In this document: positions 242-50,965 of the stretch, piece by piece
How the letters are laid out: the number at the start of each line of letters is the position of its first letter
Position numbering within the stretch: position 1 is the first letter of the stretch
DNA from: Ignavibacteriota bacterium
GTDB lineage: Bacteria > Bacteroidota > Ignavibacteria > UBA10030 > UBA6906
DNA length: 64,000 nt
NCBI GenBank assembly: GCA_003157485.1
Contig: PMJQ01000203.1
Location: 35,415 to 99,414 of the forward strand
Direction: 5' to 3'
Made by a program: the position numbers and the translations under genes
Notes under the pieces: generated by a model
The model's database searches: none
What the model saw: only the letters and a program-made list of their open reading frames with translations
Told to the model about the DNA's origin: nothing

Positions 242-267
242 CTCCTGCACAACTGAGCTTGTCACGA

Positions 268-299
268 GCCCCGGCATCACCTGTCGGGGCTTTCTTTTG
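268..299 (+). terminator. Rho-independent terminator after the T9SS gene
   Basis: GCCCCG(268-273)...CGGGGC(285-290) hairpin followed by TTTCTTTTG. Confidence 0.6.
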
Positions 300-308
300 T
301 CAAATCTG

Positions 309-370
309 CATCTCACCTCGCACCCACGTCCATTGTCCCGGGAGGGGCCGGAAGGACTTGAGGACGTGCA
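309..370 (+). repeat. A element copy 1 (imperfect palindrome, core 321-368)
   Basis: Core is CACCCACGTCCATTGTCCCGGGAGGGGCCGGAAGGACTTGAGGACGTG. It is 38/48 identical to copy 4 by hand alignment. It abuts the stop codon of the minus gene 372-656. Confidence 0.7.
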
Positions 371-371
371 C

Positions 372-656
372 TCAATACTCCCTGGTCTCCAATACTTCGA
401 CGATCCGCGTCTGTGGATTCATCATGACTTTGCCTTGGACGCGACCCCACACGCCGCGCATTGCGGTGAGCACGGCTTCTGCCTGCTGTAATGTGTCAAA
501 CTCGAGGTCGATCATTGCGTAGTTTGGCTCATCTATTGGTCGCAAGACGCGGTACCGGCGGACGCCTGATTTCGCCCGGCCAATAGGGTCGCTGTCGAAC
601 GCCTTTTTCCAGCCGTCAAAGTCGGGAACTTGGTGCTCGATCCTCAAGATGTACAT
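372..656 (-). CDS. small conserved hypothetical protein (94 aa), probably a dimeric alpha/beta-barrel fold
   Basis: ORF 372-686. The internal ATG at 656 is preceded by AAAGGAGCTCAA. The product begins MYILRIEHQVPDFDGWKKAFDSDPIGR. I recall this as a widespread small uncharacterised protein type. Confidence 0.7.
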   Translation of the reverse strand: MYILRIEHQVPDFDGWKKAFDSDPIGRAKSGVRRYRVLRPIDEPNYAMIDLEFDTLQQAEAVLTAMRGVWGRVQGKVMMNPQTRIVEVLETREY

Positions 657-706
657 TTGAGCTCCTTTGCGCATCAGTAAACCCATGACTGCTATCTACG
701 ACACGG

Positions 707-842
707 CTCATACAGGCGCATGATGCCAGTCCCGGGGATGGGGTAACGAGAGAAAAGCAAACCTCTACGTAGGACAGAAAGCGGAAGGACGGAATCGGAC
801 GCGGGCTATCTTCAACATAACCAACAACTAACCCAATAGCAA
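707..842 (-). promoter_or_regulatory. B element copy 1: conserved promoter plus 5' leader upstream of 372-656
   Basis: About 114/138 identical to 8613-8750 by hand alignment, including a 28/28 identical core (763-790). On the minus strand it starts TTGCTA-N17-TATGTT and ends about 50 nt before the ATG at 656. Confidence 0.6.
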
Positions 843-966
843 TCGGTCGAATCCAGTCACACGAAGGTAGATCTCAACGCCCTCAGACGACGGATGACTC
901 GTCTCACCGCAAACGCGGGGCAGATTCGGTTGCCCGGCGGCTCGAATACCCTAACACTTGCGCACT

Positions 967-1070
967 CGGAACGCTGTCTCGAATGATTTGCTGCTGTGTC
1001 TCTCGGGGTTCGTTTATCTACCTCACACCCGCGTCCCTTGTCCCAGGAGGGGCGGAAGGGTTTGAGGAAG
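967..1070 (+). repeat. A element copy 2 (core 1026-1070) with an extended left arm shared with copy 3
   Basis: Core is CACCCGCGTCCCTTGTCCCAGGAGGGGCGGAAGGGTTTGAGGAAG. The 51 nt to its left (967-1017) match 2241-2291 at 34/51 without gaps. Confidence 0.65.
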
Positions 1071-1400
1071 CCCCTCCGAGAGAGGAATATCATTTCAGCG
1101 AACACGCGCCTTTGCTGGTCATGGTTCCCAACGGGTGTCATCGGCAGACACTTACGACGAATTGATCAGGAGACTCTCACACGGAGGGAACGAATCAAGC
1201 AAGACCCTCTGTAGGCGAGTCTTTTCCGTCAGATCATCAAGGACGAGATCAAAAGAGGTTAATGAGCGAGAGAACACTCCCTTGCAGCGGGGCGAACGAA
1301 GAGAATTCGTGCACTAATATTGCGGGACACGCATGGTTTGAGTACTTTGAAGCTGTCTCATTGGGCTTTGCCTGCATCAACACCAAAGGAGTAACGAACC

Positions 1401-2087
1401 ATGAAGATCCTTCTGCCGCTGTTACTCCTCACCGGCCTGGCGACAAGCGCACACGGACAAGATGAAGGCGATGTTCCCCAGAAGCAAGGGAGGATCGGGA
1501 TTTCGGTGAAGGCAGGACCGGCGTTTCCGCTCGTTGATTTTTCGGATCTCTTCACGACGGGATTCACAGGATTTGTTGACGTGCCCTATAACCTTACGGA
1601 AGATTTACAGGTCTATCTGGGCCTGGGGTTTTCTCACTTCACTCTTGACAACGCGAAGTTGACCAACCATCTCAAAGAGCTGGGCGAGAACACAACCGCA
1701 AACATCGATGCTCCGTACCAGTTGATTCCGCTGGTCCTGGGCTTGAACTACTCGTACCGGTACCCGCATTTCTGGCCGTATTTCACCATGTCTCTCGGCA
1801 TGTACTTCCAGAAGCTGGAGACCTCGGGTTCATTGACCACCGCCGGTGTCACGACACCCGTTGTGTCCAATACCCAGACTTGGTCTCAAGACGCATTTGC
1901 CGTCGGCATTGGAAGTTTGATCCCGCTGGGGAACGAGGGGTGGGCCATCGATGTGAACGCGAAGTATAATACCGTCGTGGACTATAAAGGAAGAGTATTG
2001 GTTACCACGACCGGCGGTGGCAACATCGGCTCACGAGCAATTCGCTATGTGAATCTTCTGGGAGGCCTCAGTTACACTTTCCGGTAA
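1401..2087 (+). CDS. outer-membrane beta-barrel protein (OmpA-like beta-barrel / porin_4-type)
   Basis: Signal peptide MKILLPLLLLTGLATSAHGQ, alternating beta-strand pattern, aromatic C-terminus (SYTFR), RBS AAAGGAG upstream. Confidence 0.7.
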   Translation: MKILLPLLLLTGLATSAHGQDEGDVPQKQGRIGISVKAGPAFPLVDFSDLFTTGFTGFVDVPYNLTEDLQVYLGLGFSHFTLDNAKLTNHLKELGENTTANIDAPYQLIPLVLGLNYSYRYPHFWPYFTMSLGMYFQKLETSGSLTTAGVTTPVVSNTQTWSQDAFAVGIGSLIPLGNEGWAIDVNAKYNTVVDYKGRVLVTTTGGGNIGSRAIRYVNLLGGLSYTFR

Positions 2088-2111
2088 GATGGTTCGATTT
2101 CTAATGACCTT

Positions 2112-2291
2112 TCAAATTCGACTGTGGAGCGCCTTCTTTATCAGGTCTTCATTGAATACCCGGAGTGAATGACAAGTTTTCGCGTAGAAGCGTGGCAGAC
2201 ACACCGCTCCTTCGCCGGAGTCCGACTGCACACTGATCTCCGGAAAGTCCTCCCGAATGAACTGTTCCTGTTGCCCGCCCAATTCGTTCAT
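2112..2291 (-). CDS. candidate small ORF (59 aa) immediately downstream of A copy 3 on the minus strand
   Basis: MNELGGQQEQFIREDFPEISVQSD... A degenerate paralogous reading (ATA instead of ATG, INEPRETQQQIIRDSVPS...) follows A copy 2. The SD-like GGGGAG sits only 1-2 nt from the ATG, so translation is uncertain. Confidence 0.3.
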   Translation of the reverse strand: MNELGGQQEQFIREDFPEISVQSDSGEGAVCLPRFYAKTCHSLRVFNEDLIKKALHSRI

Positions 2292-2347
2292 CTCCCCTTG
2301 CACCCGCGTCCATTGGACCGAGTGGGGGCGGAAGAGGTTTGAGGACG
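2241..2347 (+). repeat. A element copy 3 (core 2301-2347) with the extended left arm
   Basis: Core is CACCCGCGTCCATTGGACCGAGTGGGGGCGGAAGAGGTTTGAGGACG. The left arm is homologous to 967-1017. Confidence 0.65.
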
Positions 2348-2523
2348 GACAGTCCTTCACTTGTGGCAACAATTGATTCTCGCCCTCCCCTTCCGTATTA
2401 TTCCGCCGTATTGTTGGCTCTTCGTGCCGTTGGGATCATACACGCCAGTGTAGACTTCCCACGGGTGTCGCGGGCGGATCTCACATCAAGAGCAATCTTA
2501 CCTCAACCGGTACCTCAAGACGC

Positions 2524-3645
2524 TTGCCGTTTGCGCTGACTGTTCTATGCCTCTCGGCTTCCCTTCACTTCTCCGATCTCACCCTTTTCGCTCAAGACCA
2601 GTTACTCTCCGTTTTTTACTTCCAGCAGGTAAAGGGTCTCACAACAGGTGAGATTCGCTCATATGTCGTTCGGGATCCGAAGGGGCTCGTCTGGGTCGGC
2701 ACGGTTAATTGCCTAAACAGGTATGATGGGTATGGCGTGAAGGAATATTGGAAAAACCCAAGCGATCTCCACGCAATCTCGTCGAGCACCGTCCATTGCA
2801 TGTACGTGGACAGAAAGAACCGTCTCTGGCTGGGCACCCACGAATCAGGTCTCAGTCTATATGATCCTCTTCGTGACAGATTTGTCAATTTTATCCCCCG
2901 TCCCGGGGATTCATCATGGTATCAATCACAATTTATCGCAACTCTTTTGGAAGACCGGTCGGGCAACATCTGGATGACAACATCCTACGGTGGTGTTGCT
3001 CGTGTTGAGTTACCGTCCGGGAATATCGCTGACTCTGATAGCTTGTTCCACAAGGTCCATTTCACAACGTATCCGTTAGGCACGCCGAGGAACATCGCAT
3101 CCAGCATGCTCGAGCGTGAAGACGGCAGGATACTGATCGCTTCTGACGGCGGGATGATCGTTCTCGATCCCCGCACATCTGAGATGTCGCGACTTCACTT
3201 CTCAGACCCTACAGGTCGTCGGCTCGATTCACTCAATATCCTAAGCCTCATTCAGGATAGTCACGGGAACCTCTGGGTGGGGACGCATGACGAAGGTTTG
3301 TATTGGCTGAGCCAAAAGTCTCAGCGGTTTCCCCTTTATGGCCTCCGCGATAAGGACGGATCATCTCCGATCTTCTTTACGAGCGTTGACCGCGACAAGG
3401 GTGGCGCGTGCTGGTTTATGTCTTCAAGGGGAGTTCTTCACCAGATCAACATCATGACGCACAAAGTCGTGAAGCGCATTGATATCCTGCACGGGCAGCT
3501 GCTATCATATCAGCTTATCCCTACTTTCATCGACAGGCGAGGGATCTACTGGGATGGCACATGGGGACTCGGTTTGTTCTGGGTTGATTTGAAAAACGGC
3601 CACATCAGAAACTACAGCGTTTGCGTCGAAAGGAGGACAAGATGA
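2524..3645 (+). CDS. two-component-regulator propeller (Reg_prop) repeat protein with no kinase or output domains
   Basis: Repeated LWVGT/LWLGTHESGLSLYD/IWMTTSYGGVARV/LWVGTHDEGLYW motifs. TTG start with no clear RBS. The stop overlaps the next ATG (ATGA at 3642-3645). Confidence 0.6.
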   Translation: MPFALTVLCLSASLHFSDLTLFAQDQLLSVFYFQQVKGLTTGEIRSYVVRDPKGLVWVGTVNCLNRYDGYGVKEYWKNPSDLHAISSSTVHCMYVDRKNRLWLGTHESGLSLYDPLRDRFVNFIPRPGDSSWYQSQFIATLLEDRSGNIWMTTSYGGVARVELPSGNIADSDSLFHKVHFTTYPLGTPRNIASSMLEREDGRILIASDGGMIVLDPRTSEMSRLHFSDPTGRRLDSLNILSLIQDSHGNLWVGTHDEGLYWLSQKSQRFPLYGLRDKDGSSPIFFTSVDRDKGGACWFMSSRGVLHQINIMTHKVVKRIDILHGQLLSYQLIPTFIDRRGIYWDGTWGLGLFWVDLKNGHIRNYSVCVERRTR

Positions 3646-4256
3646 GAACCCAATCCATCTGTATTACGCTAGCCATCGCTCTGCTATGTCCTTTTGCGTC
3701 TGCGCAATGGGTCCATACAACTCTACCCGATAGTCTTGCAGTTAGTTGCTTTGCCGTGAGCGGTACGGATGTCTTTGCCGGAAACGGGAATGCCATGTCT
3801 GGAAGCGGCGGCGTATTTCGTTCCAGCAACAATGGCACGAGCTGGGCAGCTACCAGCTTGACAAATGGTGTTAGTTGTTTCGTAGTAGGTGGCACGAATC
3901 TCTTTGCCGGGACCGATGGCCACGGCATCTGGAGGCGACCGCTGTCGGAGATGGACCCGACCTCAGCGGGCACCACAGCAGATAACTTACCGTCCACCTT
4001 CATCCTTTACCAGAACTTCCCCAACCCCTTCAATCCTAGCACAACAATCAAGTTTGAATTGCCGAGAGCATCAGTCGTGAATCTGGCGGTGTATGACGTT
4101 CTGGGACGGGAAGTATCCGTCCTAATCAATGACAGAAGGAGCGCGGGAGTCTACGAGGTGAAATTCGATGGATCAGCACTGGCAAGTGGAGTCTATTTCT
4201 ACAGGCTGCAGGCCGGGAGCTACGTGAACAGGAAAAAGCTATTGCTTTTGCGTTGA
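3642..4256 (+). CDS. T9SS C-terminal-domain secreted protein
   Basis: AGGAGG RBS, signal peptide MRTQSICITLAIALLCPFASAQ, CTD YQNFPNPFNPSTTIKFELP...GVYFYRLQAGSYVNRKKLLLLR. Confidence 0.85.
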   Translation: MRTQSICITLAIALLCPFASAQWVHTTLPDSLAVSCFAVSGTDVFAGNGNAMSGSGGVFRSSNNGTSWAATSLTNGVSCFVVGGTNLFAGTDGHGIWRRPLSEMDPTSAGTTADNLPSTFILYQNFPNPFNPSTTIKFELPRASVVNLAVYDVLGREVSVLINDRRSAGVYEVKFDGSALASGVYFYRLQAGSYVNRKKLLLLR

Positions 4257-4296
4257 TCTTCATTCAACGTCCTTCTCCTCAAGCCGCGCCCCCGGC

Positions 4297-4315
4297 TTCT
4301 CCCCTCCGGGGAGAA
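4297..4315 (+). terminator. hairpin after the T9SS gene
   Basis: TTCTCCCC-tcc-GGGGAGAA, an 8-bp stem with a weak U tail. Confidence 0.4.
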
Positions 4316-4318
4316 TGC

Positions 4319-4347
4319 TTGACATTGAACGCGAAGACAAGTAGACT
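4319..4347 (+). promoter_or_regulatory. sigma70-type promoter of the HK-activator-hydrolase operon
   Basis: TTGACA(4319-4324)-N17-TAGACT(4342-4347), about 30 nt upstream of the ATG at 4379. Confidence 0.55.
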
Positions 4348-4378
4348 ATCCGCACGGTTTACTTGTCTGTGACGGATC

Positions 4379-5668
4379 ATGAAATCTGACGAAGACGTGG
4401 GTAGGGGCGCGGCGGGGAAGCGCCGAAGGAGGGATCTCCAGGCGTCTGCCGTCGAGCTCCTGAAATCCCTCAACCTCATCGTCGGCCTTGACCAGCTTCT
4501 GGAAATCCTGTGTGCCCGGCTGAAGGAAATATTCGGCGCCGGGACCGTGACGATCTCTCTCTTCGATCCCATCACTCGTCGCTATGCCGGGATGATGGCC
4601 CGCGGGTCCGACGCCCCGAATGCCGCGTTGTTCGGTTTCTTCGAGTTTAATCCCCTCGTCAAATGGCTGAACGTCAACCAGTCCCTCCTGAACGTGCGGA
4701 CAGACAGGGGTGTCTTTGACTACCTCTCGCCCGAAGAGAAGCTTGTACTTGAGTCCCACCGGGTTGCGCTGGTTGTCCCTCTTATCGCGCTGAACAGGCT
4801 TACCGGCATCCTCTTCTTATCCGACAGGGAAGACGGAACCGCGTACTCGCGCGCCGAAATCGAGAACCTTCTCATGGTTGCCGGCCAGGCTTCACTTGCC
4901 GTGGAAAACGCGGTGATGACGCAGTTTCAGGAGGAGAGGCTCAAGAAACTCTTCCACGCGGACAAGCTGGCCACCGTCGGCGAGCTCGCGGCGGGCGCCG
5001 CCCACGAAATCCGCAATCCCCTCACGTCAATCCGCAGCACAGTTCAGTTCCTGAAGAAGGACCTCCCGGCTGAGAAGCACGGCTACGTGGATGGCGTCAT
5101 CGAGGAGGTGGACAGGATCGACGGGATCATCAAGGGGCTCCTCTCTCTCAGCAAGTCGTCGGAATTACAGCTGAGCAGGGTCGACCTCCGCGAGGCGCTC
5201 CAGCAGACGCTCCTGCTTCTGGACCCCGAGATGAAAAGGAACGGGGTTGCCGTCAAACAGGAGATAACGATCGTCGATCCGACTGTGGAAGCGGACCAGG
5301 CCCAGGTCAAACAGGTATTCCTCAACGTGCTTCTGAACAGCATACAGGCGATGCCTCAGGGGGGCGCTATTACCGTCCATATGGCCGACCGCCCCGACGG
5401 CAAGAGAGAAGAGTCTCTCGATTCCGTCCGCGTCACGCTTTCCGACACGGGCCCCGGGATTCCGGAGGAAGCGATGCGAAGAGTGTTTGACCCGTTTTAC
5501 ACGACAAAAGAGAACGGAACGGGGCTCGGGCTTTCGATCACGTACGGCATCGTCCAGGGGCACGGGGGTGAAATTGACATCGTGAGCAAGACTGACCCCT
5601 CTTCACACGGGACCAGCGTGACAATCCGTATGCCGAGGAAAGCTAAAAAGCTGACGATTGGCCATTAG
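4379..5668 (+). CDS. cytoplasmic GAF-domain sensor histidine kinase
   Basis: H-box AAHEIRNPLTSIRS, N/G boxes (LNSIQAM, DTGPGI, GTGLGLSI), no TM segment, GAF-like N-terminal half. Confidence 0.85.
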   Translation: MKSDEDVGRGAAGKRRRRDLQASAVELLKSLNLIVGLDQLLEILCARLKEIFGAGTVTISLFDPITRRYAGMMARGSDAPNAALFGFFEFNPLVKWLNVNQSLLNVRTDRGVFDYLSPEEKLVLESHRVALVVPLIALNRLTGILFLSDREDGTAYSRAEIENLLMVAGQASLAVENAVMTQFQEERLKKLFHADKLATVGELAAGAAHEIRNPLTSIRSTVQFLKKDLPAEKHGYVDGVIEEVDRIDGIIKGLLSLSKSSELQLSRVDLREALQQTLLLLDPEMKRNGVAVKQEITIVDPTVEADQAQVKQVFLNVLLNSIQAMPQGGAITVHMADRPDGKREESLDSVRVTLSDTGPGIPEEAMRRVFDPFYTTKENGTGLGLSITYGIVQGHGGEIDIVSKTDPSSHGTSVTIRMPRKAKKLTIGH

Positions 5669-5707
5669 GGTCCGTTGCACGGCTCCTGGATCCATTCAGA
5701 TATCATA

Positions 5708-7105
5708 ATGACGCGAACCGCGGCATCGAAAATACTTGTTGTCGACGACGAGGAGCGAATCCGGACGATACTTGCCGCGATACTCCGCGGCGAGGGGTAT
5801 CTGGTCGAAACCGCGGCCGACGGGATTGAAGCCCTTGATCGGGGAACGGCGTTCCGCCCGGACGTACTCGTCGTCGATCTTCAGATGCCCCGCATGGATG
5901 GGATAGAGACGATAAGCCGGTTCAAGGAGAGGGTCCCGCACGCCGCCGCAATCATACTGACTGCCCACGGGTCGATTCAATCTGCAGTCGAAGCCATCAA
6001 AAAGGGAGCGTATGACTACCTGACCAAGCCGTTCGACAACGACCAGCTTCTGATGGTAGTCCGGCGTGCGTGTGACCTCGTGAGGATCTCAAGTGAGCTG
6101 GAACGGCTCAGGGCCAGACTGGAGCCGCAGGGGGGTCTTCGAGCACTCCTCGGCGAAAGCGATCTCATGCGGGATCTGCGCGCACGGATCCAGAAAATCG
6201 CGGAGGCCGACGCGACGGTTCTCATTTGCGGGGAAAGCGGCACCGGGAAGGAGCTTGCCGCCCGCGCGATACACATGGAGAGCAGAAGGAAGGAAGAGCC
6301 GCTCGTTGTCGTGGATTGCGCCGCCATTCCGGAACAGCTCATGGAGAGCTCGTTCTTCGGTCACGAGAAAGGGGCGTTTACCGATGCCCACGAGCAGAAA
6401 ACCGGCGCCTTCGAAGAAGCGAACGGCGGGACCGTGTTCCTTGACGAAATCGGGGAATTGCCCACGGGTGCACAGTCGAAGCTCCTGAGAGTCCTGCAGG
6501 AGAAAGAGTTCTCCCGTGTCGGGTCAGCAAGTCCGATACGCGTGGACGTGCGTGTAATTGCCGCGACGAACAAGGATCTCGCCGCGCGCGTCAGAAAAGG
6601 GAAGTTCCGCGAGGACCTCTATTACAGGCTCGACGTCCTCAACCTGAAAATGCCGTCACTGAGAGAACACATCGGGGACGTGCCCCTCTACGCGGCGCAT
6701 TTTATCGAAAGATACAGGAGTGTGTTCGGGAAACGGGTCTCGGGGATATCGCCGGAAGCTCTCCAAATTCTCACGTCGCTCCCCTGGAACGGCAACGTGC
6801 GCGAGCTCGAAAACGTCATCCAGCGGGGCCTCTTAAACGCCTCGGGGGAAACCTTGCAGGAGGCCGACGTCAGATTCGCCGGAGAAACAGGTGGCCGGAG
6901 CGCGGTGCCGTGGGACCCCTCCGTGGGGCTTGAGTTGTATGTTAAGTCCCTCTCCGAAGAAGCGGAAAAGAGGATCATACTTGAATCTCTTGGCCGGACC
7001 GGCTGGAACAGAACAGCGACCGCCCAGAACCTGGGGATCAGCAGAAAGACCCTCTTCAACAAGATGCAGCAGTACGGAATAGAGGAAAGGCCTGTGGAGC
7101 CCTGA
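5708..7105 (+). CDS. sigma54-dependent response regulator (NtrC family: REC-AAA+-Fis HTH)
   Basis: ILVVDDEE...DLQMP receiver, Walker A GESGTGKE, GAFTDA loop, RVIAATN, C-terminal HTH AQNLGISRKTLFNKM. The ORF opens at 5675 (TTG) and the ATG at 5708 was chosen. Confidence 0.9.
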   Translation: MTRTAASKILVVDDEERIRTILAAILRGEGYLVETAADGIEALDRGTAFRPDVLVVDLQMPRMDGIETISRFKERVPHAAAIILTAHGSIQSAVEAIKKGAYDYLTKPFDNDQLLMVVRRACDLVRISSELERLRARLEPQGGLRALLGESDLMRDLRARIQKIAEADATVLICGESGTGKELAARAIHMESRRKEEPLVVVDCAAIPEQLMESSFFGHEKGAFTDAHEQKTGAFEEANGGTVFLDEIGELPTGAQSKLLRVLQEKEFSRVGSASPIRVDVRVIAATNKDLAARVRKGKFREDLYYRLDVLNLKMPSLREHIGDVPLYAAHFIERYRSVFGKRVSGISPEALQILTSLPWNGNVRELENVIQRGLLNASGETLQEADVRFAGETGGRSAVPWDPSVGLELYVKSLSEEAEKRIILESLGRTGWNRTATAQNLGISRKTLFNKMQQYGIEERPVEP

Positions 7106-8050
7106 ATGAGAAAGACATTCCGCGTTCTTCTTGTCGTCATTCCCCTCCTGGTTGTGGCTCTGAGCCTGGGTTTGCTCTACGCAATCGAGAACGTCCTTCC
7201 CTATTCCGCAATCCGGCCGCACAGGTGCACCGTCGGGGAGATGGCCCTCTCCTCTCCCAATTTTCTGAGCCCGGCGGCGTTCACTCCCCACTGGGAGAAC
7301 TTCGATATCACAGTCGAGGATACAATCCGGTTGAAAGGCTGGTTCATATTCGCATCAGGCGGGGAAAACAGGGGGACGATATTACTGCTCCACGGGATCG
7401 GGAGCTGCAAAATTACAATGCTCTCACTGGCAAAGCTGTTCGTCCAGAACGGGTTTAACTGCATTCTTTACGACTCGCGCGCAAATGGCGAGAGCGGGGG
7501 TATCAATTGTACGTTTGGGTACTACGAAAAGCGGGATCTTTCGGCATACATCGATTCAGCCCTCGTACGATATCCCGGTTCCGCGCCGTTCGGTGTCCTC
7601 GGTGATTCATTCGGCGCTGCCACGGCAGTACAGGCGCTGGCCTGGGACAAACGTCTCGTGTGCGGTATCGCCGAGAGCCCGTTTGCCACACTGCGCGGCG
7701 TGATACATGATTATTTCCGGCAGATGTATTTCGTCCCTTTGTACTTCATTCCGGACGCCGCCCTCGTCAATTCCGAGCGAATTGCACGGTTTCAGGTGGA
7801 CAGCGTGAGTCCCGAACAGGATGCCCGGAGGATCACTCAGCCCACGATGATCGTCCACGGTTCAGCCGATCGCAAAATCTCTTCGCAGTACGGGAGGCTG
7901 GTCTTCGACAACCTGGCTTCGACACATAAGGAATGGTATCTGGTCGAAGGTGCGGGACACTCGGATATCGGGAATGTCGGTGGCGCTGAATATGAAGCCC
8001 GGATCGTCGGATTCTTTAGGACATATCTGAACGTGAACACTGCTCGATGA
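7106..8050 (+). CDS. membrane-anchored alpha/beta hydrolase
   Basis: The ATG directly abuts the activator stop (TGAATG). N-terminal TM, HGIGSCK, nucleophile elbow GDSFGA, C-terminal GAGHSD. Confidence 0.8.
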   Translation: MRKTFRVLLVVIPLLVVALSLGLLYAIENVLPYSAIRPHRCTVGEMALSSPNFLSPAAFTPHWENFDITVEDTIRLKGWFIFASGGENRGTILLLHGIGSCKITMLSLAKLFVQNGFNCILYDSRANGESGGINCTFGYYEKRDLSAYIDSALVRYPGSAPFGVLGDSFGAATAVQALAWDKRLVCGIAESPFATLRGVIHDYFRQMYFVPLYFIPDAALVNSERIARFQVDSVSPEQDARRITQPTMIVHGSADRKISSQYGRLVFDNLASTHKEWYLVEGAGHSDIGNVGGAEYEARIVGFFRTYLNVNTAR

Positions 8051-8394
8051 AAGGACGCCGGAGAGGATTCTGTCGCGAACCGATGTCTTCTCTGAATTCG
8101 TTCGGTTGAAGCAGCCGAAATGTCTGAGAAATCATCCCTTCGTTTCTGCACCCCCCGCGTGACGTCTGACACACACACTCTCCTAAAATTTCACCACTCT
8201 GCAACAACCTCATACGACCTTCAAATGCTGAAATACTTCATTTCCGCAAACGCGATTCTGTTCTTTGCTGGTAGGTCTTCGGTTATAGAAACAATTCGCG
8301 AGCGCTTCAAGCGAATGCTCGGTTGGTCCACGTTTACCGTGCACAGGGACGTCTAAGGGCGCATGATTCGGACTGGAACCCGGGGGAATCTCAC

Positions 8395-8571
8395 ATGAAT
8401 ACTGTGACGATAGTCTGTCCGCATTGTTACAATGAAGGCGACCACCCGTTTTACCTGAGGCCGACCCCTTTCAAGCTCAGCGGGTCAAATCGGGTTCTCT
8501 GCGAAAACTGTTTCAAGAAGTTCAGGGTTTACTTCCAGGAGGGGAGAATCAGCAACGTGGCGAGAGTGTAA
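8395..8571 (+). CDS. small zinc-ribbon protein (58 aa)
   Basis: MNTVTIVCPHCYNEG...VLCENCFKKF has two CxxC pairs. GGGGGA lies 8 nt upstream of the ATG. The gene sits in lower-GC sequence. Confidence 0.5.
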   Translation: MNTVTIVCPHCYNEGDHPFYLRPTPFKLSGSNRVLCENCFKKFRVYFQEGRISNVARV

Positions 8572-8612
8572 GTCTTCACTGCCTGATCAGGAAAAACTCT
8601 TTCGATTGTTTC

Positions 8613-8750
8613 TTGCTATTGGGTCATTTGTTCGTTAGCTTGAACACAGCCCCCCGTCTGACACTGTCCTTCCGCTTTCTGTCCTACGTAGAGCTTTGCA
8701 TTTCTCCTGTTGCCCCATCCTCGGGAAATTGCATCACGCGCCTGAATGAG
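8613..8750 (+). promoter_or_regulatory. B element copy 2: conserved promoter plus 5' leader upstream of 8786-9127
   Basis: TTGCTA(8613-8618)-N17-TAGCTT(8636-8641), identical 28-nt core at 8666-8693, conserved hairpin 8697-8733 (UGCA-UUUCUC / GGGAAA-U-UGCA) with the loop GUUGCCCCAUCC conserved in copy 1. Confidence 0.6.
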
Positions 8751-8785
8751 GACAAATCGCTTTCCAGGAAGTGGAGAATGTGCGC

Positions 8786-9127
8786 ATGGAAAACCCTCCC
8801 AATATCCAGCCAGCAACAGACTTGCTCGACGGCCTAAAACGCTCGATTCATACGACGTATTGGTCATACTGTGCCGAATTGGAACGGCTCAAATTGTTCA
8901 AAATAGGGCACGACGAAGACACCAAATCATGGTCTGATCGCGCCCAGAGCAACCCGACCGACCAGAATCTGCAGCGATTGGCAGAATACGGTTCGCAGGG
9001 AACTGGCTTCTTGGACCTGCTTCTGACCGAACTCGAAGGCTATTCACTTAAGTACCGGAGTTTCGCACGGTTCGTGGACGATGTCGAGTTGCAGCTGGGG
9101 ATACTGGGAACCGGAACTTCAGTTTGA
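8786..9127 (+). CDS. hypothetical protein (113 aa), no recognisable domain
   Basis: ATG 8786 with GGAG 9 nt upstream (alternative GTG at 8771). Lower GC than its neighbours. Followed 27 nt later by A copy 4. Confidence 0.55.
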   Translation: MENPPNIQPATDLLDGLKRSIHTTYWSYCAELERLKLFKIGHDEDTKSWSDRAQSNPTDQNLQRLAEYGSQGTGFLDLLLTELEGYSLKYRSFARFVDDVELQLGILGTGTSV

Positions 9128-9153
9128 TGCAGATGTCGAAGAACGTGAGATGT

Positions 9154-9200
9154 GCGTCCTCAACCAGTTCCGGCCCCTCCTGGGACCATCGACGCGGGTG
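9154..9200 (-). repeat. A element copy 4 (inverted relative to copies 1-3)
   Basis: The reverse complement reads CACCCGCGTCGATGGTCCCAGGAGGGGCCGGAACTGGTTGAGGACGC. Confidence 0.7.
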
Positions 9201-9306
9201 CCCGGGGGCTGTTGTGTGTAAGGCTCTACCCACCCCCGTGTAACGGGTTACCCGACTTTCCTCCCTCACCCCTTTCATTTCTATAATTTCCGCAATTATC
9301 CCCAAA

Positions 9307-9320
9307 GGCACGGCGCTTGC
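9307..9320 (+). promoter_or_regulatory. sigma54 (-24/-12) promoter of the ABC operon
   Basis: aGGCACGgcgcTTGCA with GG(9307-9308)-N10-GC(9319-9320). About 57 nt upstream of the ATG at 9377, with an AGGAG RBS in between. Confidence 0.7.
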
Positions 9321-9376
9321 ACGCCCATGCCCATTGACCCGCGGCAACACACAAACACCCAGGAGCACCCAACGCC

Positions 9377-10087
9377 ATGATACAAGCCATCGATCTCACG
9401 AAGCGCTACGAGGACGGGCTCCTCGCTCTCGACCACCTCAACATTTCGATCCTGCCCGGCCAGATATACTGCCTCCTGGGGGCGAACGGGGCCGGCAAAA
9501 CGACGACAATCAATCTGTTTTTCAATTTCATAGAGCCGACGAGCGGGACGGCCCTGCTGAACGGAAAAGACTGCACGAAGGAGCCCCTTCTCGCGAAGCA
9601 GTTCGCGGCGTATGTGTCGGAGAATGTCATGCTGTACGGCAACTTCACTGCGCGCCAGAACCTGGACTTCTTCACGAAGCTTTCGGGAAGGAAGAACCTG
9701 AGCAAGGATGAGTATTACATGGTGATGCGCCAGGTCGGCCTTCCGGAACGTGCTTTCGAACAGAGAGTGAAGACGTTTTCCAAGGGGATGAGACAAAAAC
9801 TCGGGATCGCCATCGCAATCCTCAAGCAGGCCCCGGCGCTCCTTCTTGACGAACCGACATCCGGGCTCGATCCGAAGGCCGGAGCGGAGTTCGTGGAGCT
9901 GCTTCTCAAGCTGCGCGGCGAGGGGAAAGCCATACTCATGTCCACCCACGACGTGTTTCGTGCGAAGGAAATCGCGGACGTCGTCGGGATCATGAAGGAG
10001 GGAGTCCTGATCATGGAGAAGACGAAGGATGATCTGAAGTACGAGGACCTGGAGAAGCTCTATCTGAAGTACATGGAAGTAAGCTGA
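9377..10087 (+). CDS. ABC transporter ATP-binding protein (ABC-2 type)
   Basis: Walker A GANGAGKTT, signature FSKGMRQKL, Walker B LLLDEPTSGLD, H-loop STHD. Confidence 0.9.
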   Translation: MIQAIDLTKRYEDGLLALDHLNISILPGQIYCLLGANGAGKTTTINLFFNFIEPTSGTALLNGKDCTKEPLLAKQFAAYVSENVMLYGNFTARQNLDFFTKLSGRKNLSKDEYYMVMRQVGLPERAFEQRVKTFSKGMRQKLGIAIAILKQAPALLLDEPTSGLDPKAGAEFVELLLKLRGEGKAILMSTHDVFRAKEIADVVGIMKEGVLIMEKTKDDLKYEDLEKLYLKYMEVS

Positions 10088-20563: not shown

Positions 20564-23500
20564 CTATTTCAACAGAACGAGCTTCTTCGACGCGTGATAG
20601 TCTCCCGCGGTGATTGTATAGAAATATGCCCCGCTGGCCAGTCCCGAGGCGTTGAACGGCGCTTCATGGTACCCCGCATCTTCCTGCTCACTGACAAGCG
20701 TCGCCACTCGCTGGCCAAGCGTCGTGAAAACCTCCAGCGTGACGAATGCCTTCTGGGGGAGACCGTACTTTATCGTCGTAGAAGGATTGAATGGATTGGG
20801 ATAGCTCTGACTCAGCGAAAACTCGGTGGGGAATCCCTCCCCGGCGAGGCCGGAGGCGACGTCGACGGCAATGCCGTCGGAATACAGGAATGTCCCGTCG
20901 AGATTGAGCTGCTTGAGCCGGTAATAGACAGTTCCGGATCCCGGTGCCGCGTCGGTGTAACTGTAACGCTGCGACACCGTCGTTGTGCCGTGAGCGCCCA
21001 CGAAGCTTCCCTGGATCGACTGATATCCTCCGGCCTGCACTGCTGACTTCTGGATCTCGAAGCCGTATGCGTTTGTCTCGCTGAGTGTCGACCACTGAAT
21101 CAGCACGCCCCGTCCGCTGACATCCGTCCCCGTGAGCGAGGCAAGCTGTATCGGCAGCGGGGGCCCGGAGTTCTCCCACAAACCTCGTCCGTGCGTCGCG
21201 ATCCGCAGAACTCGCGTGCTCTGCTGAAATGCCATGTCAAAGACCGCCACGATGGGAAGACCCGATCCGAAAACATTCCAGGTCGCTCCTCCGTCCGTCG
21301 AGTTATACACCCCGATATCGGTTCCTGCATAGAGATTGCTTGAATTCGCAGGATCAACGACGAATGCGTTCACGGGGACATCGGGGAGGCCGCTGTTGAT
21401 CGATGCGATCAAAGGCGTTGTGCCGAGGTTCGTGACTTTCCAGACGTGTGATTGGGAAGTCGACGTCCCTCCCATGTACCCGCCGAGTGCGACGTATGCC
21501 GTGTTCTTGTTCTCCGGATCAAACGCGACGCGGCCGATGTATTTGTCCGGAATCACGCCCCCGCTCCCCGTGGGGTCCAGTGCCGTCATCGTTGAGGATC
21601 CGGATGTCGTGTAGAAGAGAGCCCCGTTCTCCAGTCCGACTACCCTGAAGTTGTCGTCCTGCGGCGACACGGCAATTGACGAGATGGGGATGTTCGTGGC
21701 AAGGGGCGCCTGGCTGACAACGGTTGTGTTTGTCCCTTTGTTCGTTGATCGGTACAGACGGTCCGTCCCGAAATACAACGTATTCGGGTTTCCCGGTCCG
21801 AGCGCCATGGGCGCGTAAAAGAGGACCGCGTCGGTGCAACCGATCCCGTTTGAGGCTCCGCCGCATCCGAGCACTGTCCAGAGCCCGTCTGAGGCCGAAG
21901 AAACGCTCGTGACCCGTGCGAATCCGACCAGACTCCCCGTCGCGTTGAAATAGGTATGGTACATCGTGACGTTGACAAGGTCAGTCCCCGCGTTCTGGTC
22001 GATCGCCGTGTACCCGCCGTCGCCGAAATCGATGCGGTTCCATGTTCCCAGGGGCGTGTACATGTTCGTCCCGTTGTCCTGCGTCCCGCCAATCGAGAAG
22101 TTGGGATCTGTCGGGTGAAGCGCGATGCTCTGGAACTGCGTGGCGTTGAACCCGGCAACGTTCTGGCTTGTCCAGGAATGTCCGCCGTCGGTCGATTTGA
22201 ATATGCCGCCGTCATTGCCGTGGTAGACGATCTGAGAGTTTGAGGGAGCCAGCATTATCGCGTGCGTGTCTGCATGAAGTCCGGAATCGAAATTCGTAAA
22301 TGAGTTTCCGCCGTTGACGGAAATCGCGTGCAACCTCGAGCAGGTCGAGGAGCTTGTCTGTCCGCCGATGTGAATCGTGTCGTTTGCAGTCGATGTTCCG
22401 GGAACGACCGCGATGGCGGTATTGTAAAAGCACTGCCCGCCGCAGAACCCGCCGCCTCCGGCGAGCTTGCCCGACCATGTGACCCCTGCGTCAGTCGAGA
22501 CTCTCAGTGCGCCCTCCTGTGTCGCATCGGAGCACCCGGTGCCTGATGATGCCTCGCCGGTCGCGGCATAGACGACTGTTGCCGCGCCCCGCGTGTAGAT
22601 TCCGAACGCGACACGTACTCCGGTCGTCGTTGTCCCGAGGACCTGGGTCTGCGTGAATGTCGGAGTCGCGGCGAGTGCATTGGTGGTGCGGTAGATTCCC
22701 CCGTCGACGCCCGTGCTCAGCCCGAATACGGCACAGACGATCGTGTCGGGATTTCCCGGTCCGAACACCATGTCGGTGACGTTCCTGTTCCCCGTATTGT
22801 CCGTCTCGCTTCCCGCGGTCGTGACCGTGAGCTTCGAGAACGTCACCGATGATGCGGCCGACGTTCCGTTTGTCGAGCGCCAGATCCCTCTCGGTCCCAG
22901 CGGCGGAAACGTTCCGCCCCCCGCGGCGTCGCAGCCCAGACCGATGGCGCCGGAGCCTGTGGCGACGAATATCGTAGCAGGGTCCACCGGGTGGACGAGG
23001 ATCTTGCTGATCGTTCGTCCGCCGAACGGGGTCGTTCCCGGGACGCCGCTGTACGGGGGGTTTATGGGTCCGACGAGGTTGGGCGAGGTGTCTGCGTTAT
23101 CGATGCGGTAGAGTCCCACTCCAGCGTAGCTGTCGCACGAAAAGTTCGCCTCCCCCGTCCCGATGTACAGGATTGTCGGGTTCGACGGGGCGAGAGCCAG
23201 TGCGCCGATCGCGAGAGATTGCGCCCCGTCGAATATCGGCGTCCAGTGGGCTCCCCCGTCTACTGTCCGGTACACTCCCCCCTGGGCTGTTCCGACGTAA
23301 ACGATATTTGGATTGGTGGGATGGATCGCAACGGCGGTCACTCTCCCGCTCACCGACAGCACGGATGTTTGCGTCTGTCCGTTCGGTATCGGGGCCGGCC
23401 CGAGCGGCGTCCACGCCGTGCTCGTCACCTTGGCGAGCGAACGGGCCGCGCTCCGTTGCATCTCGGTTATCGCTCTTACCCGGGGGTCGTACGGAAGATC

Positions 23501-48433: not shown

Positions 48434-50965
48434 ATGAATGCTCCGCGTCTTTCCTTCTCTTTCGCGCTTCTGATCGCACTGCTCTCCGAATGCGCATTCG
48501 CGCAGAACAATCTGCCTTTCGACCTCCAGGCATATGAGGCTTTTCTGGCAGGCCACAGGGACATGAGTTCGACGCAATTGCTGGCGCTGCACCCCTCCGG
48601 GGCATTCGTCGCGAAATCGCAGGTCGCGCCTGAAGCAATCAATGGTCTCCGGACCATCGACTCCAGCTTTTCGTTCACCCCCTTTGAACGGTCGCTCGTC
48701 GCGGACCACGGATTCATGGTGTCCGATCGCATCCGGTATAATTCGGTCGGAGACGCGGTCCTCGACATCTACCACCGCGACCTTCCCATCTTTGTTTCCT
48801 CCGACGCGATCCTTCACGCCGTTCATGCCTCGTACGATGCGATTCTCCGGGGGGCTGAAACAGGCCTCCTCGCGCCGAACCTTGATACGCTTCTGTCAGG
48901 ACTCAGGGCGCAATTGCCTGCCATGAACGTGGAATACGCCGCCGTTCCGGCCATGGCGCCAATGCTGCATGACATCGACATCTACCTCACGGTCGCATGC
49001 GCGCTGCTGGATGGTTCCGCGGCGCCGTATTTCCCCGAGGACGCGGCGGATGTGAGTACGCTGGAGAACCTTATTGCCGCTCAGCAGGCCGTGTCGTATC
49101 CCCTCTTTTCGTCGACCCCCCGGATTATCGATTTCAGCCAGTTCACGATCCGCGGCCACTACACCCTGTCAGTGAAGCTGGGCCAATACTTCCAGTCGAT
49201 GATGTGGCTCGGGAGGACGGAGCTTTACCTCCTGGGTCCGGCGGGCGTGTATCCGGCTCAGCAGCCCGCGGACATACAGCGGCAAACGGTCGACGCCGCC
49301 CTCCTTGTGGAGGCGATGGACCGCGCAGCCGCGTATTCCCGCCTGGGGGAGATTGATACGATAATATCCGCGTGCGTCGGGGAGTCGGACAACGTCACGA
49401 TTCCAAACATGAAATCCCTCCTGCAGGGTGTCAATATCGGAACTGCGAGTCAACTTCTCGATACGACCGTGCTCGCGGCGTTTCAGAACAACCTCAGGAA
49501 TCAGCCGTTCGCGTTCCAGCGGATCAATTCGCAGATTCTGCAAAGCTCCGATCCACTGACCCCCGGTCTGATACAGCCGGCCGCTTCCCTCCTGCTTCTG
49601 GGCCAGCGGTTCGTCGTCGACTCGTATGTCACCGGCAATGTCGTGTACGACAAGATAAACTATCAGGGGCACGCCGTGTGGAGGGCCCTCCCCTCGACGC
49701 TGGATGTGTTGTTCGCGCTTGGCAACGACGCCGCCGCCCAGTTGCTGGTCTCGGAGCTTGACAGGTACAACTACGCCTCGAACCTTGCCGCGGTCAGGTA
49801 CCTCATAGACGGGTACGATGCTTCATTCTGGCAGAGTTCGATTTTCAACGCGTGGCTCGGCATGATACGCGCATGCAACCCGCCGGCCGATCGATCCGCA
49901 CTCCCCGGGTTCATGACGACGGCTGCCTGGTGGCAGGAGAAGATGAACACGCAGCTTGCGTCGTGGGCGGAGCTCCGCCATGATAATCTCCTCTATGCGA
50001 AGCAGTCCTACACCGGCGTCGCAGGGTGTTCGTTCCCCGCGGGGTACGTCGAACCGATCCCGGCGCTCTATGACGCCGTGCGTGCTTTGGCGCAGGTCGG
50101 CAAAACCCGTCTCGTTCCGCTCCTGTCCGGCACCGGGGGGAATTGGTCGCTGGCATCGTATTTCTCTGGGCTTGACGGCGTCGCCGATACGCTTGGCACG
50201 ATCGCGCGTGAGGAGCTCGGCGGTACCTGTTTGACGACGGACCAGGTTGCGTTCCTGAAGCATATGATCTATATGGCAGACGGTGGCTGCATGCAGGCCC
50301 CCAACGGCTGGTACGTCAGGCTTTTCTACTTCGGGGCGGACCCTCTGAAAAAGGACTATCTCGTTGCCGACGTTCACACGTGCCCGGCCGACGCGTTCGG
50401 GAACCCTGTTGGCTGGGTCCTGCATGTCGGCACGGGTCCCGTCAATCTTGCGGTCGTGACGGCGCCATCCACCGATGGCGGACCGGCGGCATACGTCGGG
50501 CCCGTGATGAGCTACGGAGAACACGTGACGGACAACTTTCTCCGCTTGACGGACGCTCAGTGGAGCACGTCGTACGCGCTCTATGGGTCGTCCCGCCCTT
50601 CGTTAGTGAACCTGTATCTTGCCGACAGCATCGGCGGCTCGAGGGGAGCAGGGGCATCGCTCACCACAGGAATATCGGTAATAGACCCGGTTTCTCTCCC
50701 GCAGGAGACCGTCTTGTACCAGAATTATCCCAATCCGTTCAATCCCGCGACGCTCATCAAGTACGTCCTCCCCGGCCGCTCTGACGTCACGCTGACCGTC
50801 TATAATACGCTCGGTCAGCGGGTCGCCGTACTCGTCCATGAGACTCAGGAACGGGGATATCATCAGGCGTCGTTCGACGGGGGAGGCCTCTCGAGCGGTG
50901 TCTATTTCTACCGGCTCCAGGCAGGGAGCTCCGTCACGACGAAGCGCATGATTCTTTTGAAGTGA
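48434..50965 (+). CDS. large secreted protein (DUF3160-like) with T9SS CTD
   Basis: Signal peptide. FTIRGHYT...YFQSMMWLGR resembles what I recall of DUF3160. C-terminal YQNYPNPFNPATLIKYVLP...GVYFYRLQAGSSVTTKRMILLK. Confidence 0.65.
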   Translation: MNAPRLSFSFALLIALLSECAFAQNNLPFDLQAYEAFLAGHRDMSSTQLLALHPSGAFVAKSQVAPEAINGLRTIDSSFSFTPFERSLVADHGFMVSDRIRYNSVGDAVLDIYHRDLPIFVSSDAILHAVHASYDAILRGAETGLLAPNLDTLLSGLRAQLPAMNVEYAAVPAMAPMLHDIDIYLTVACALLDGSAAPYFPEDAADVSTLENLIAAQQAVSYPLFSSTPRIIDFSQFTIRGHYTLSVKLGQYFQSMMWLGRTELYLLGPAGVYPAQQPADIQRQTVDAALLVEAMDRAAAYSRLGEIDTIISACVGESDNVTIPNMKSLLQGVNIGTASQLLDTTVLAAFQNNLRNQPFAFQRINSQILQSSDPLTPGLIQPAASLLLLGQRFVVDSYVTGNVVYDKINYQGHAVWRALPSTLDVLFALGNDAAAQLLVSELDRYNYASNLAAVRYLIDGYDASFWQSSIFNAWLGMIRACNPPADRSALPGFMTTAAWWQEKMNTQLASWAELRHDNLLYAKQSYTGVAGCSFPAGYVEPIPALYDAVRALAQVGKTRLVPLLSGTGGNWSLASYFSGLDGVADTLGTIAREELGGTCLTTDQVAFLKHMIYMADGGCMQAPNGWYVRLFYFGADPLKKDYLVADVHTCPADAFGNPVGWVLHVGTGPVNLAVVTAPSTDGGPAAYVGPVMSYGEHVTDNFLRLTDAQWSTSYALYGSSRPSLVNLYLADSIGGSRGAGASLTTGISVIDPVSLPQETVLYQNYPNPFNPATLIKYVLPGRSDVTLTVYNTLGQRVAVLVHETQERGYHQASFDGGGLSSGVYFYRLQAGSSVTTKRMILLK

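Follow-up and report, generated by a model that had tools for sequence, protein, structure and literature searches.

Two divergent modules with a putative promoter-leader on an Ignavibacteriota contig: probable differently trimmed paralogues of one small operon, flanked by an unrelated intergenic repeat

Where the upstream regions of non-homologous genes in one genome share 80% identity or more over a length of 50 nt or more, they have been described as putative mobile promoters (Matus-Garcia, Nijveen and van Passel 2012; PMC3575422). The locus presented here is reminiscent of them in that a similar upstream region stands before non-homologous genes; it is likewise conserved across genomes and has no match in Rfam. 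The locus is part of contig PMJQ01000203.1 of an Ignavibacteriota bacterium (assembly GCA_003157485.1, positions 35,415 to 99,414), and the whole stretch of 64,000 nt analysed is referred to as the window. Near its beginning are two copies of a non-coding element termed B (B1 and B2), followed by a small open reading frame each (ORF1 and ORF2, respectively) and by a copy of a second, shorter element termed A, or A' when read in the opposite direction. The difference from mobile promoters would be that B was reused here via deletion of an intervening gene and not via movement of the promoter. From sequence comparison, and at a probability of roughly 0.7, the two modules are interpreted as old, differently trimmed paralogues of one two-gene operon sharing B, with A being an unrelated repeat at their ends.

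As had been recognized in the original prediction, B1 (842→707) on the minus strand is an inverted copy of B2 (8613-8750), the two being 83-86% identical over ~138 nt. They share an identical core of 28 nt, GTCCTTCCGCTTTCTGTCCTACGTAGAG; within the 64 kb, a 19-mer taken from it has exactly two occurrences, compared with 0.01 expected by chance. It is also correct that A follows the ORF1 stop codon directly in copy 1 and the ORF2 stop codon after 27 nt in copy 2, and that the modules diverge, with genes for an outer membrane protein (OMP), a Reg_prop protein, a type IX secretion system (T9SS) protein, a histidine kinase (HK), a sigma-54 activator, and a hydrolase between them. ORF1 and ORF2 are unrelated to each other, and both are real genes with homologues. 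The claim that only the ORFs differ is inexact, since module 1 alone possesses A2' and a 165-nt spacer upstream of B1, and the leaders of the two modules are also dissimilar over their last ~35 nt. A, which had been taken for a paired 3' element, is indeed present in both modules, but the window holds four copies of it, with A2 and A3 having been overlooked. Genes of the window were found at 100% identity on peat and fen metagenome contigs from Stordalen Mire and in the metagenome-assembled genome (MAG) GCA_003158685.1. The T9SS sorting domains and the Reg_prop genes would be in keeping with an affiliation to Ignavibacteriota.

The relationship between the modules is inferred from a 1.8-kb contig, L034 (the labels L005 to L034 denote the contigs and loci that were fetched and compared with the window), on which both genes are located behind a single B. 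The contig carries an incomplete A' (697-735), then a spacer and B (896-1046), followed by an ORF2 homologue (1074-1409), 105 nt of intervening sequence, an ORF1 homologue (1515-1793), and, at its very end, the start of A', GTGCACGTCC. Module 1 of the window aligns with this contig in two blocks, namely 1046→707 with L034 697-1038 at 79% identity, and 682→362 with L034 1483-1803 at 92.5% identity. The alignment skips L034 1039-1482, that is, 444 nt spanning the leader's end, ORF2, and the greater part of the ORF2–ORF1 spacer. The junction is located between window positions 707 and 706 and reads CTGTATGAG/CCGTGTC, with the slash indicating the junction; in L034, the end of B reads CTGAATGAG/GAGAAG, and the ORF2–ORF1 spacer reads GGTGAG/CCGTGTC. 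Based on the two-block alignment and the TGAG junction, module 1 would therefore be a B–ORF2–ORF1–A' operon minus ORF2. Module 2 (8613-9128) is 82% identical to L034 902-1416. The A2'–spacer–B1 region (1046→707) is, in addition, 82% identical over 352 nt to L029 5654-6005, where it precedes an ORF2 homologue. B1 shows 91% identity to the B element of L034 and 88% to that of L029, compared with 83% to B2; since it is nearer to the copies of other genomes than to its counterpart in the window, the two window copies would be old paralogues and not the products of a recent inverted duplication.

According to the scenario proposed, the ancestral-type operon would start with B and normally have ORF2 as its first gene; in some genomes it would extend into ORF1 and end beside a copy of A. 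Copy 1 would have lost 444 nt between two TGAG tetranucleotides, i.e., at a microhomology, and this deletion would have put B1 directly before ORF1. Copy 2 is an ordinary B–ORF2 unit, the A' of which was maybe left over after loss of ORF1. Because of B, ORF1 and ORF2 would be under the same transcriptional and/or leader-mediated control, and they would remain co-regulated though they are now 8 kb apart.

Homologues of B were searched for with nhmmer, using a profile of B1 and B2, on the fetched loci containing ORF2 or ORF1 homologues. B precedes every ORF2 homologue fetched, which amounts to seven genomes (the window, L024, L025, L026, L029, L030, and L034), and it also heads ORF1-containing operons in three genomes. 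The neighbourhoods of ORF2 are unrelated across the genomes, including genes for TamB/Omp85, a TonB-dependent receptor, transposases, and a kinase. The distance between the start of B and the ATG codon is 168-173 nt in the six ORF2 loci measured and, according to the coordinates, 172 nt in L034. Over all pairs of these six loci, B is 77-90% identical; the corresponding values are 47-82% for the four-fold degenerate sites of ORF2 and ~50%, which is the level of unalignable sequence, for the 150-nt flanks of the B–ORF2 unit. As B is more strongly conserved than both the four-fold sites and the flanks, it is under purifying selection. B is probably the promoter plus leader of a small operon in a narrow clade, presumably one of Ignavibacteriota from peat and fen metagenomes. 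An exact 23-mer of the B core was without a match in the collection genome_contigs, and a 20-mer had a single chance match in metagenome_contigs, inside a GntR-type gene (L023); neither collection contains the locus of this organism. In viral_contigs, patterns of B and A gave no matches.

The alignment of nine B copies (B1 and B2 of the window together with those of L024, L025, L026, L027, L029, L030, and L034) starts with the invariant sequence TTGCTATTGGGT, which holds the -35 hexamer TTGCTA. This is followed by a 17-nt spacer, a -10 hexamer of the type TAnnTT, and a pyrimidine-rich leader of ~135 nt. The key positions of both hexamers are invariant in all nine copies, and their distance lies within the 17±1 nt adopted for sigma-70-type spacing; judged by these features, B would consist of a σ70-type promoter and a 5' untranslated region of ~135 nt. 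Invariant blocks of the leader are GTCCTTCC, GTCC, CG-AGAG, TTCTC, and CCCCAT. In the ORF2-type copies, these blocks are succeeded by purine-rich stretches reaching up to the ribosome-binding site (RBS); B1 and the L027 copy are devoid of this purine-rich partner and have retained the CU-rich core. A conserved forward ORF is not present in the leader of the nine copies. On the reverse strand, an ORF of ~17 amino acids, MPFPGDGATREMQTST, is found in eight of the nine copies (e.g., at ~8700-8750, minus strand); since its start varies, non-synonymous changes are numerous, and the B1 copy is frameshifted, it was rejected as a gene and is probably a by-product of nucleotide conservation. A sigma-54 promoter or enhancer function of A and B, as suggested by the activator gene between the modules, was likewise dismissed, since the spacing is unfit and the consensus GG-N10-GC (TGGCAC-N5-TTGC) has no match inside A or B at up to three mismatches. 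Pairing between B and A' as 5' and 3' elements was also discarded; by inspection, there is a 9-nt complementarity in copy 1, which is not kept in copy 2.

Several points weigh against the interpretation as trimmed copies of one operon headed by B. The full ORF2–ORF1 operon is seen on one short contig only, L034, and the decision between a deletion in the window and an insertion in L034 rests on parsimony and microhomology. The 27-nt spacer of module 2 matches the last codons of ORF1 at 17 of 23 positions, which is suggestive of a loss of ORF1 from copy 2, but 72 of 2000 shuffles score as well, and the support is marginal. The hexamers of B agree with the Escherichia coli consensus at 8 of 12 positions only and were not listed by the scan tool. 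In L027/L028, B is followed by a gene for a ResA-like thiol-disulfide oxidoreductase and then by the ORF1 homologue, implying some turnover of the gene behind B. Finally, the census of B and A covers the fetched loci, and further B copies before other genes are possible elsewhere in the genome.

The original prediction had also considered a small regulon with a common leader and a common 3' structure. The common leader fits B, as found in seven genomes; the common 3' structure is not supported, as A folds no better than shuffled sequence. Tentatively, the B leader with its invariant core GTCCTTCC…GTCC…ACGTAGAGG might represent a new cis-regulatory class, having a protein or a small RNA as its binding partner. 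If this were true, a small regulon of an Ignavibacteriota clade, possibly one for envelope or redox stress, would be co-regulated by the B leader, comprising ORF2, ORF1, and the ResA-like oxidoreductase. B is non-coding, of fixed length, and without a match in Rfam, and it would be the hallmark of a small group of co-regulated genes in an uncultured lineage; as a candidate for a new cis-regulatory leader it is of modest promise, the remainder of the locus being ordinary.

Element A is a separate, non-palindromic repeat, which is abundant in the intergenic DNA of the genomes compared and does not form a functional module with B. All four copies of the window are located in its first 9.2 kb, with none in the other 55 kb (four pattern matches versus 0.58 expected). 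Altogether, ~17 intergenic copies in both orientations are distributed over the window, L021, L022, L029, L031, and L034, and the best-conserved segment is GCACCCGCRTCCATTGTCCCGGGAGGGG. The designation of A as a hairpin could not be upheld, because RNA and DNA folding are like those of shuffled sequences (z-scores of -0.75 to +1.6, and -2.4 for one copy on one strand); nor was a consensus structure obtained among 13 aligned copies. In an alignment of 16 copies, the ends of A are not complementary and there is no duplicated target in the flanks, so that the features of miniature inverted-repeat transposable elements (MITEs) are absent. Rfam gave no match for A on the window, at either the gathering threshold or E≤5. 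A coding fragment was ruled out by indels between the copies. Five of the nine B loci have no A nearby, including L024, L025, L026, L030, and L027, where no A adjoins the B unit, and ~11 of the 17 A copies are without a nearby B. In L031/L032, which carry an ORF1 homologue of 87% identity, A' abuts the ORF1 stop codon and a second A' follows 63 nt further on, with no B present. L029 contains six A copies in 12 kb, near genes for IS110, IS21, and Mu transposases. In L021/L022, originating from the MAG Ignavibacteriae bacterium fen_1276, A lies between genes for secreted, T9SS, and Reg_prop proteins, and in L022 it is found twice directly after the hairpin CCCCGGCATCACCTGTCGGGG, which is identical to the terminator preceding A1.

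Some further observations pertain to A. Identical copies of the hairpin CCCCGGCATCACCTGTCGGGG stand behind three different T9SS-cargo genes in two genomes (window 266-292; L022 ~575-600 and ~2300-2330), and each of them is followed by A or by the A stub GCACCCGC; the repeat unit at those sites seems to be terminator plus A. L022 was evaluated as an "empty site" for A-bounded insertions and rejected, its flanking genes being only ~46% identical to those of the window and hence not orthologous enough. A 203-nt repeat of L029 (4490-4692 and 11540-11742; 81% identical) begins inside A'. One of its copies ends near the terminator-like hairpin AAAACCCCTACCGGCATTGCCGATAGGGGTTT, and one has a split IS110-family transposase 250 nt upstream of it; A may represent the terminus of a longer element or a target of IS110. 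Most A' copies contain at their 3' end a motif resembling a Shine-Dalgarno (SD) sequence plus ATG. A putative 59-amino acid ORF (2112-2291, minus strand), which has no NCBIfam match, starts at an ATG inside A3' (GAGATGAAC) that is preceded by the SD-like sequence GAGG.

Among the other explanations, two concern B itself. It is doubtful that the B leader is a structured cis-regulatory RNA, either riboswitch-like or protein-binding, that is conserved because of its structure. Its fixed length and its conservation above that of synonymous sites would be in accordance with such an RNA, and most copies are predicted to form a long-range pairing between the CU-rich segments and the purine-rich SD region. 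However, zero compensatory pairs were found in 6-8 B sequences and the covariation term is unfavourable, there being nine fairly similar copies in all; folding z-scores range from -0.9 to +1.5 in comparison with shuffles; and the purine-rich pairing partner is the very part that B1 and L027 lack while keeping the CU-rich core. With regard to Rfam, B had no match on the window at the gathering threshold or at E≤5, and L029 yielded nothing relevant at E≤5. It is also unlikely that B, or A'–spacer–B, is a mobile promoter copying itself before different genes. B1 and B2 are 82.6% identical over 138 nt and have the unrelated ORF1 and ORF2 downstream, B precedes three different first genes (ORF2, ORF1, and the ResA-like gene), and B–ORF2 resides in a different neighbourhood in every genome, all of which would be compatible with movement. 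In seven of the nine B loci, though, the same gene follows at a fixed distance, and therefore B moves together with ORF2 and not alone. Furthermore, the B1–ORF1 junction keeps a remnant of the ORF2–ORF1 spacer, which is expected of a deletion and not of a promoter insertion, and terminal repeats or target duplications were not noted at the boundaries of B in the alignments, in which no dedicated search for them was made.

The remaining two explanations were raised by the original prediction. According to the first of them, B and A' would delimit, as fixed ends, a cassette that is mobile or recombines, with A serving as an attC-like or other recombination site and the ORFs being swapped. Such an arrangement may be seen in A2'–spacer–B1–ORF1–A1' (minus strand), which has direct A repeats at its two ends, 705 nt apart, and in A2–OMP–A3, which is delimited likewise; the different, ResA-like gene between B and ORF1 in L027 and the transposase genes near A in L029 would also be in line with it. 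This exchangeable cargo is nevertheless quite improbable, given that A and B are largely unpaired and independent of each other in the fetched loci, and that the different ORFs between B and A' in the window are accounted for, base by base, by the 444-nt deletion. In addition, the aligned A copies lack a hairpin or consensus structure as well as, by inspection, an attC-like R'/R'' core (GTTRRRY), and ORF1 and ORF2 have their own B promoter, unlike integron cassettes. The second explanation, flipping of the 7.8-kb block 843-8612 by means of the inverted B copies, could invoke the ~140-nt inverted repeats flanking the block; it is extremely improbable because the junctions are colinear, the arms are 83% identical, and no recombinase is nearby. 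Exact-protein look-ups had provided 20 loci from ~17 different assemblies, and a 901-nt probe over each B junction revealed 13 loci per junction, at 100% identity and colinear, without any inverted variant (though assemblies can hide minority variants). The arms show no sign of homogenisation, and B occurs singly in six other genomes. Among the called genes, Pfam annotation revealed no integrase or recombinase gene over 10 kb on the upstream and 11 kb on the downstream side, the original prediction having likewise noted none in the window. The cassette or inversion-switch reading, tempting but in all probability wrong, is thereby removed, and the trimmed operon copies may serve as a worked example of how the appearance of "conserved flanks with exchangeable cargo" can be produced by a deletion in an operon that was duplicated.

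As to the encoded proteins, ORF1 has 1780 homologues, with identities of 74-93% among the matches listed, and the L034 homologue is 93% identical; this conservation is unusually strong for an unnamed protein. The few homologues that carry source names come from several phyla (NC10, Ktedonobacterales, Caldilineaceae, Anaerolineae). No sequence match to ORF1 was obtained in Pfam, NCBIfam, or PDB. Its predicted fold is ferredoxin-like alpha+beta (predicted local distance difference test, pLDDT, 85), with weak fold matches of ABM, BLUF, and LsrG type. For ORF2, 23 homologues were found; the protein is confidently predicted to be a helical hairpin (pLDDT 89), for which the fold search returned no significant structural neighbour. 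Taken together, the fold matches of the two proteins are of a generic ferredoxin-like and helical-hairpin kind only. Searches for the function of ORF1 and ORF2 in Pfam, NCBIfam, PADLOC, PHROGs, and PDB remained empty, with no match to a defence or phage family.

Table 1. Coordinates of the two modules and adjoining features in the window.
Feature	Position	Strand	Remarks
Intrinsic terminator, hairpin CCCCGGCATCACCTGTCGGGG	266..292	+	Terminator scan; serves the convergent T9SS/Sortilin-like gene ending at 240
A1	309..370	+	nhmmer match 303-383, E=1e-21; as A' (minus) abuts the ORF1 stop
ORF1, 94 aa, RBS AAGGAG	372..656	-	Called gene with homologues
Remnant of the ORF2–ORF1 spacer with ORF1 RBS AAGGAG (667→662)	657..706	-	Within the second alignment block with L034 (682→362 to L034 1483-1803)
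B1: predicted promoter and truncated pyrimidine-rich leader	707..848	-	Alignment to L034 B and B2
B1 -35 TTGCTA	842→837	-	17-nt spacer to -10
B1 -10 TATGTT	819→814	-	
A2'–B1 spacer	849..1013	-	Homologous spacers precede B in L029 and L034
A2	1014..1077	+	On the minus strand: unit A'–spacer–B1
A3	2289..2354	+	Between OMP and Reg_prop genes; no B nearby
B2: predicted promoter and full ~135-nt leader to ORF2 RBS (GGAG)	8613..8785	+	173 nt from B start to ATG
B2 -35 TTGCTA	8613-8618	+	
B2 -10 TAGCTT	8636-8641	+	
ORF2, 113 aa, predicted helical hairpin	8786..9127	+	Called gene with homologues
27-nt spacer, possible remnant of the ORF1 3' end	9128..9154	+	17/23 match to the last codons of ORF1
A4	9155..9207	-	As A' on the plus strand, after ORF2

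Several features of the surroundings are worth recording. Directly upstream of B2, a 58-amino acid CxxC…CxxC zinc-ribbon ORF (8395-8571, plus strand) is a called gene in all assemblies and has weak matches to zinc-ribbon and PHROG families of unknown function. At 9306-9321 (plus strand), the sequence AGGCACGGCGCTTGCA deviates from the sigma-54 consensus by one mismatch and is the only good match in the region. This site is located 55 nt upstream of an ATP-binding cassette (ABC) transporter operon (ATG at 9377), and ~100 nt from A4, with the sigma-54 activator gene (5675-7105) being situated ~2.2 kb upstream of it; the HK and sigma-54 activator pair may control the ABC operon. Repeats of the window at 2-63, 20756-20809, and 50720-50787 are coding sequence of T9SS C-terminal sorting domains (YPNPFNP…) that belong to different secreted proteins, and are not non-coding repeats. 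In assembly ERZ28655265 (L008 1347-4200, compared with L005), the 763-amino acid Sortilin-like T9SS gene adjacent to A1 is cut to its 84-amino acid C-terminal sorting domain, and ~2 kb of different sequence with two small ORFs replaces the missing part. This difference reflects either structural variation at the strain level or a contig that is chimeric.

Comparing the locus with further known systems, integron cassettes are also short single-ORF units parted by a ~60-nt repeat that starts right after the stop codon. Here, however, an attC hairpin or core is lacking and no intI is nearby, the genes have their own promoters in mixed orientations, ORF1 and ORF2 being divergent and A2 and A3 flanking the OMP gene in the opposite sense, and A is found away from any array. 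With invertons and shufflons, the locus has in common that inverted repeats flank a gene block; it differs from them by its long, diverged arms, by the lack of an invertase nearby, and by the absence of an alternative orientation in any assembly examined. Element A, on its own, resembles repetitive extragenic palindromic (REP) sequences and bacterial interspersed mosaic elements (BIME), as it is 50-65 nt long, strictly intergenic, multi-copy, present in both orientations, and locally clustered, often beside terminators and gene ends and, in one genome, near insertion sequence elements. In contrast to REP and BIME, A lacks a palindrome and shows no folding, two of its L029 copies form the 5' part of the 203-nt repeat, and no REP-associated tyrosine transposase (RAYT) was seen in the loci examined; A could not be placed in any known class of repeat. 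The modules as such may be compared with complementary gene loss after operon duplication. Of the two losses, only the deletion of ORF2 is demonstrated and that of ORF1 is suggested, and the duplication is old (83% identity), inverted, and 8 kb apart; as in that process, each copy keeps the promoter-leader and one gene, and the junction of the deletion, with its microhomology, is visible.

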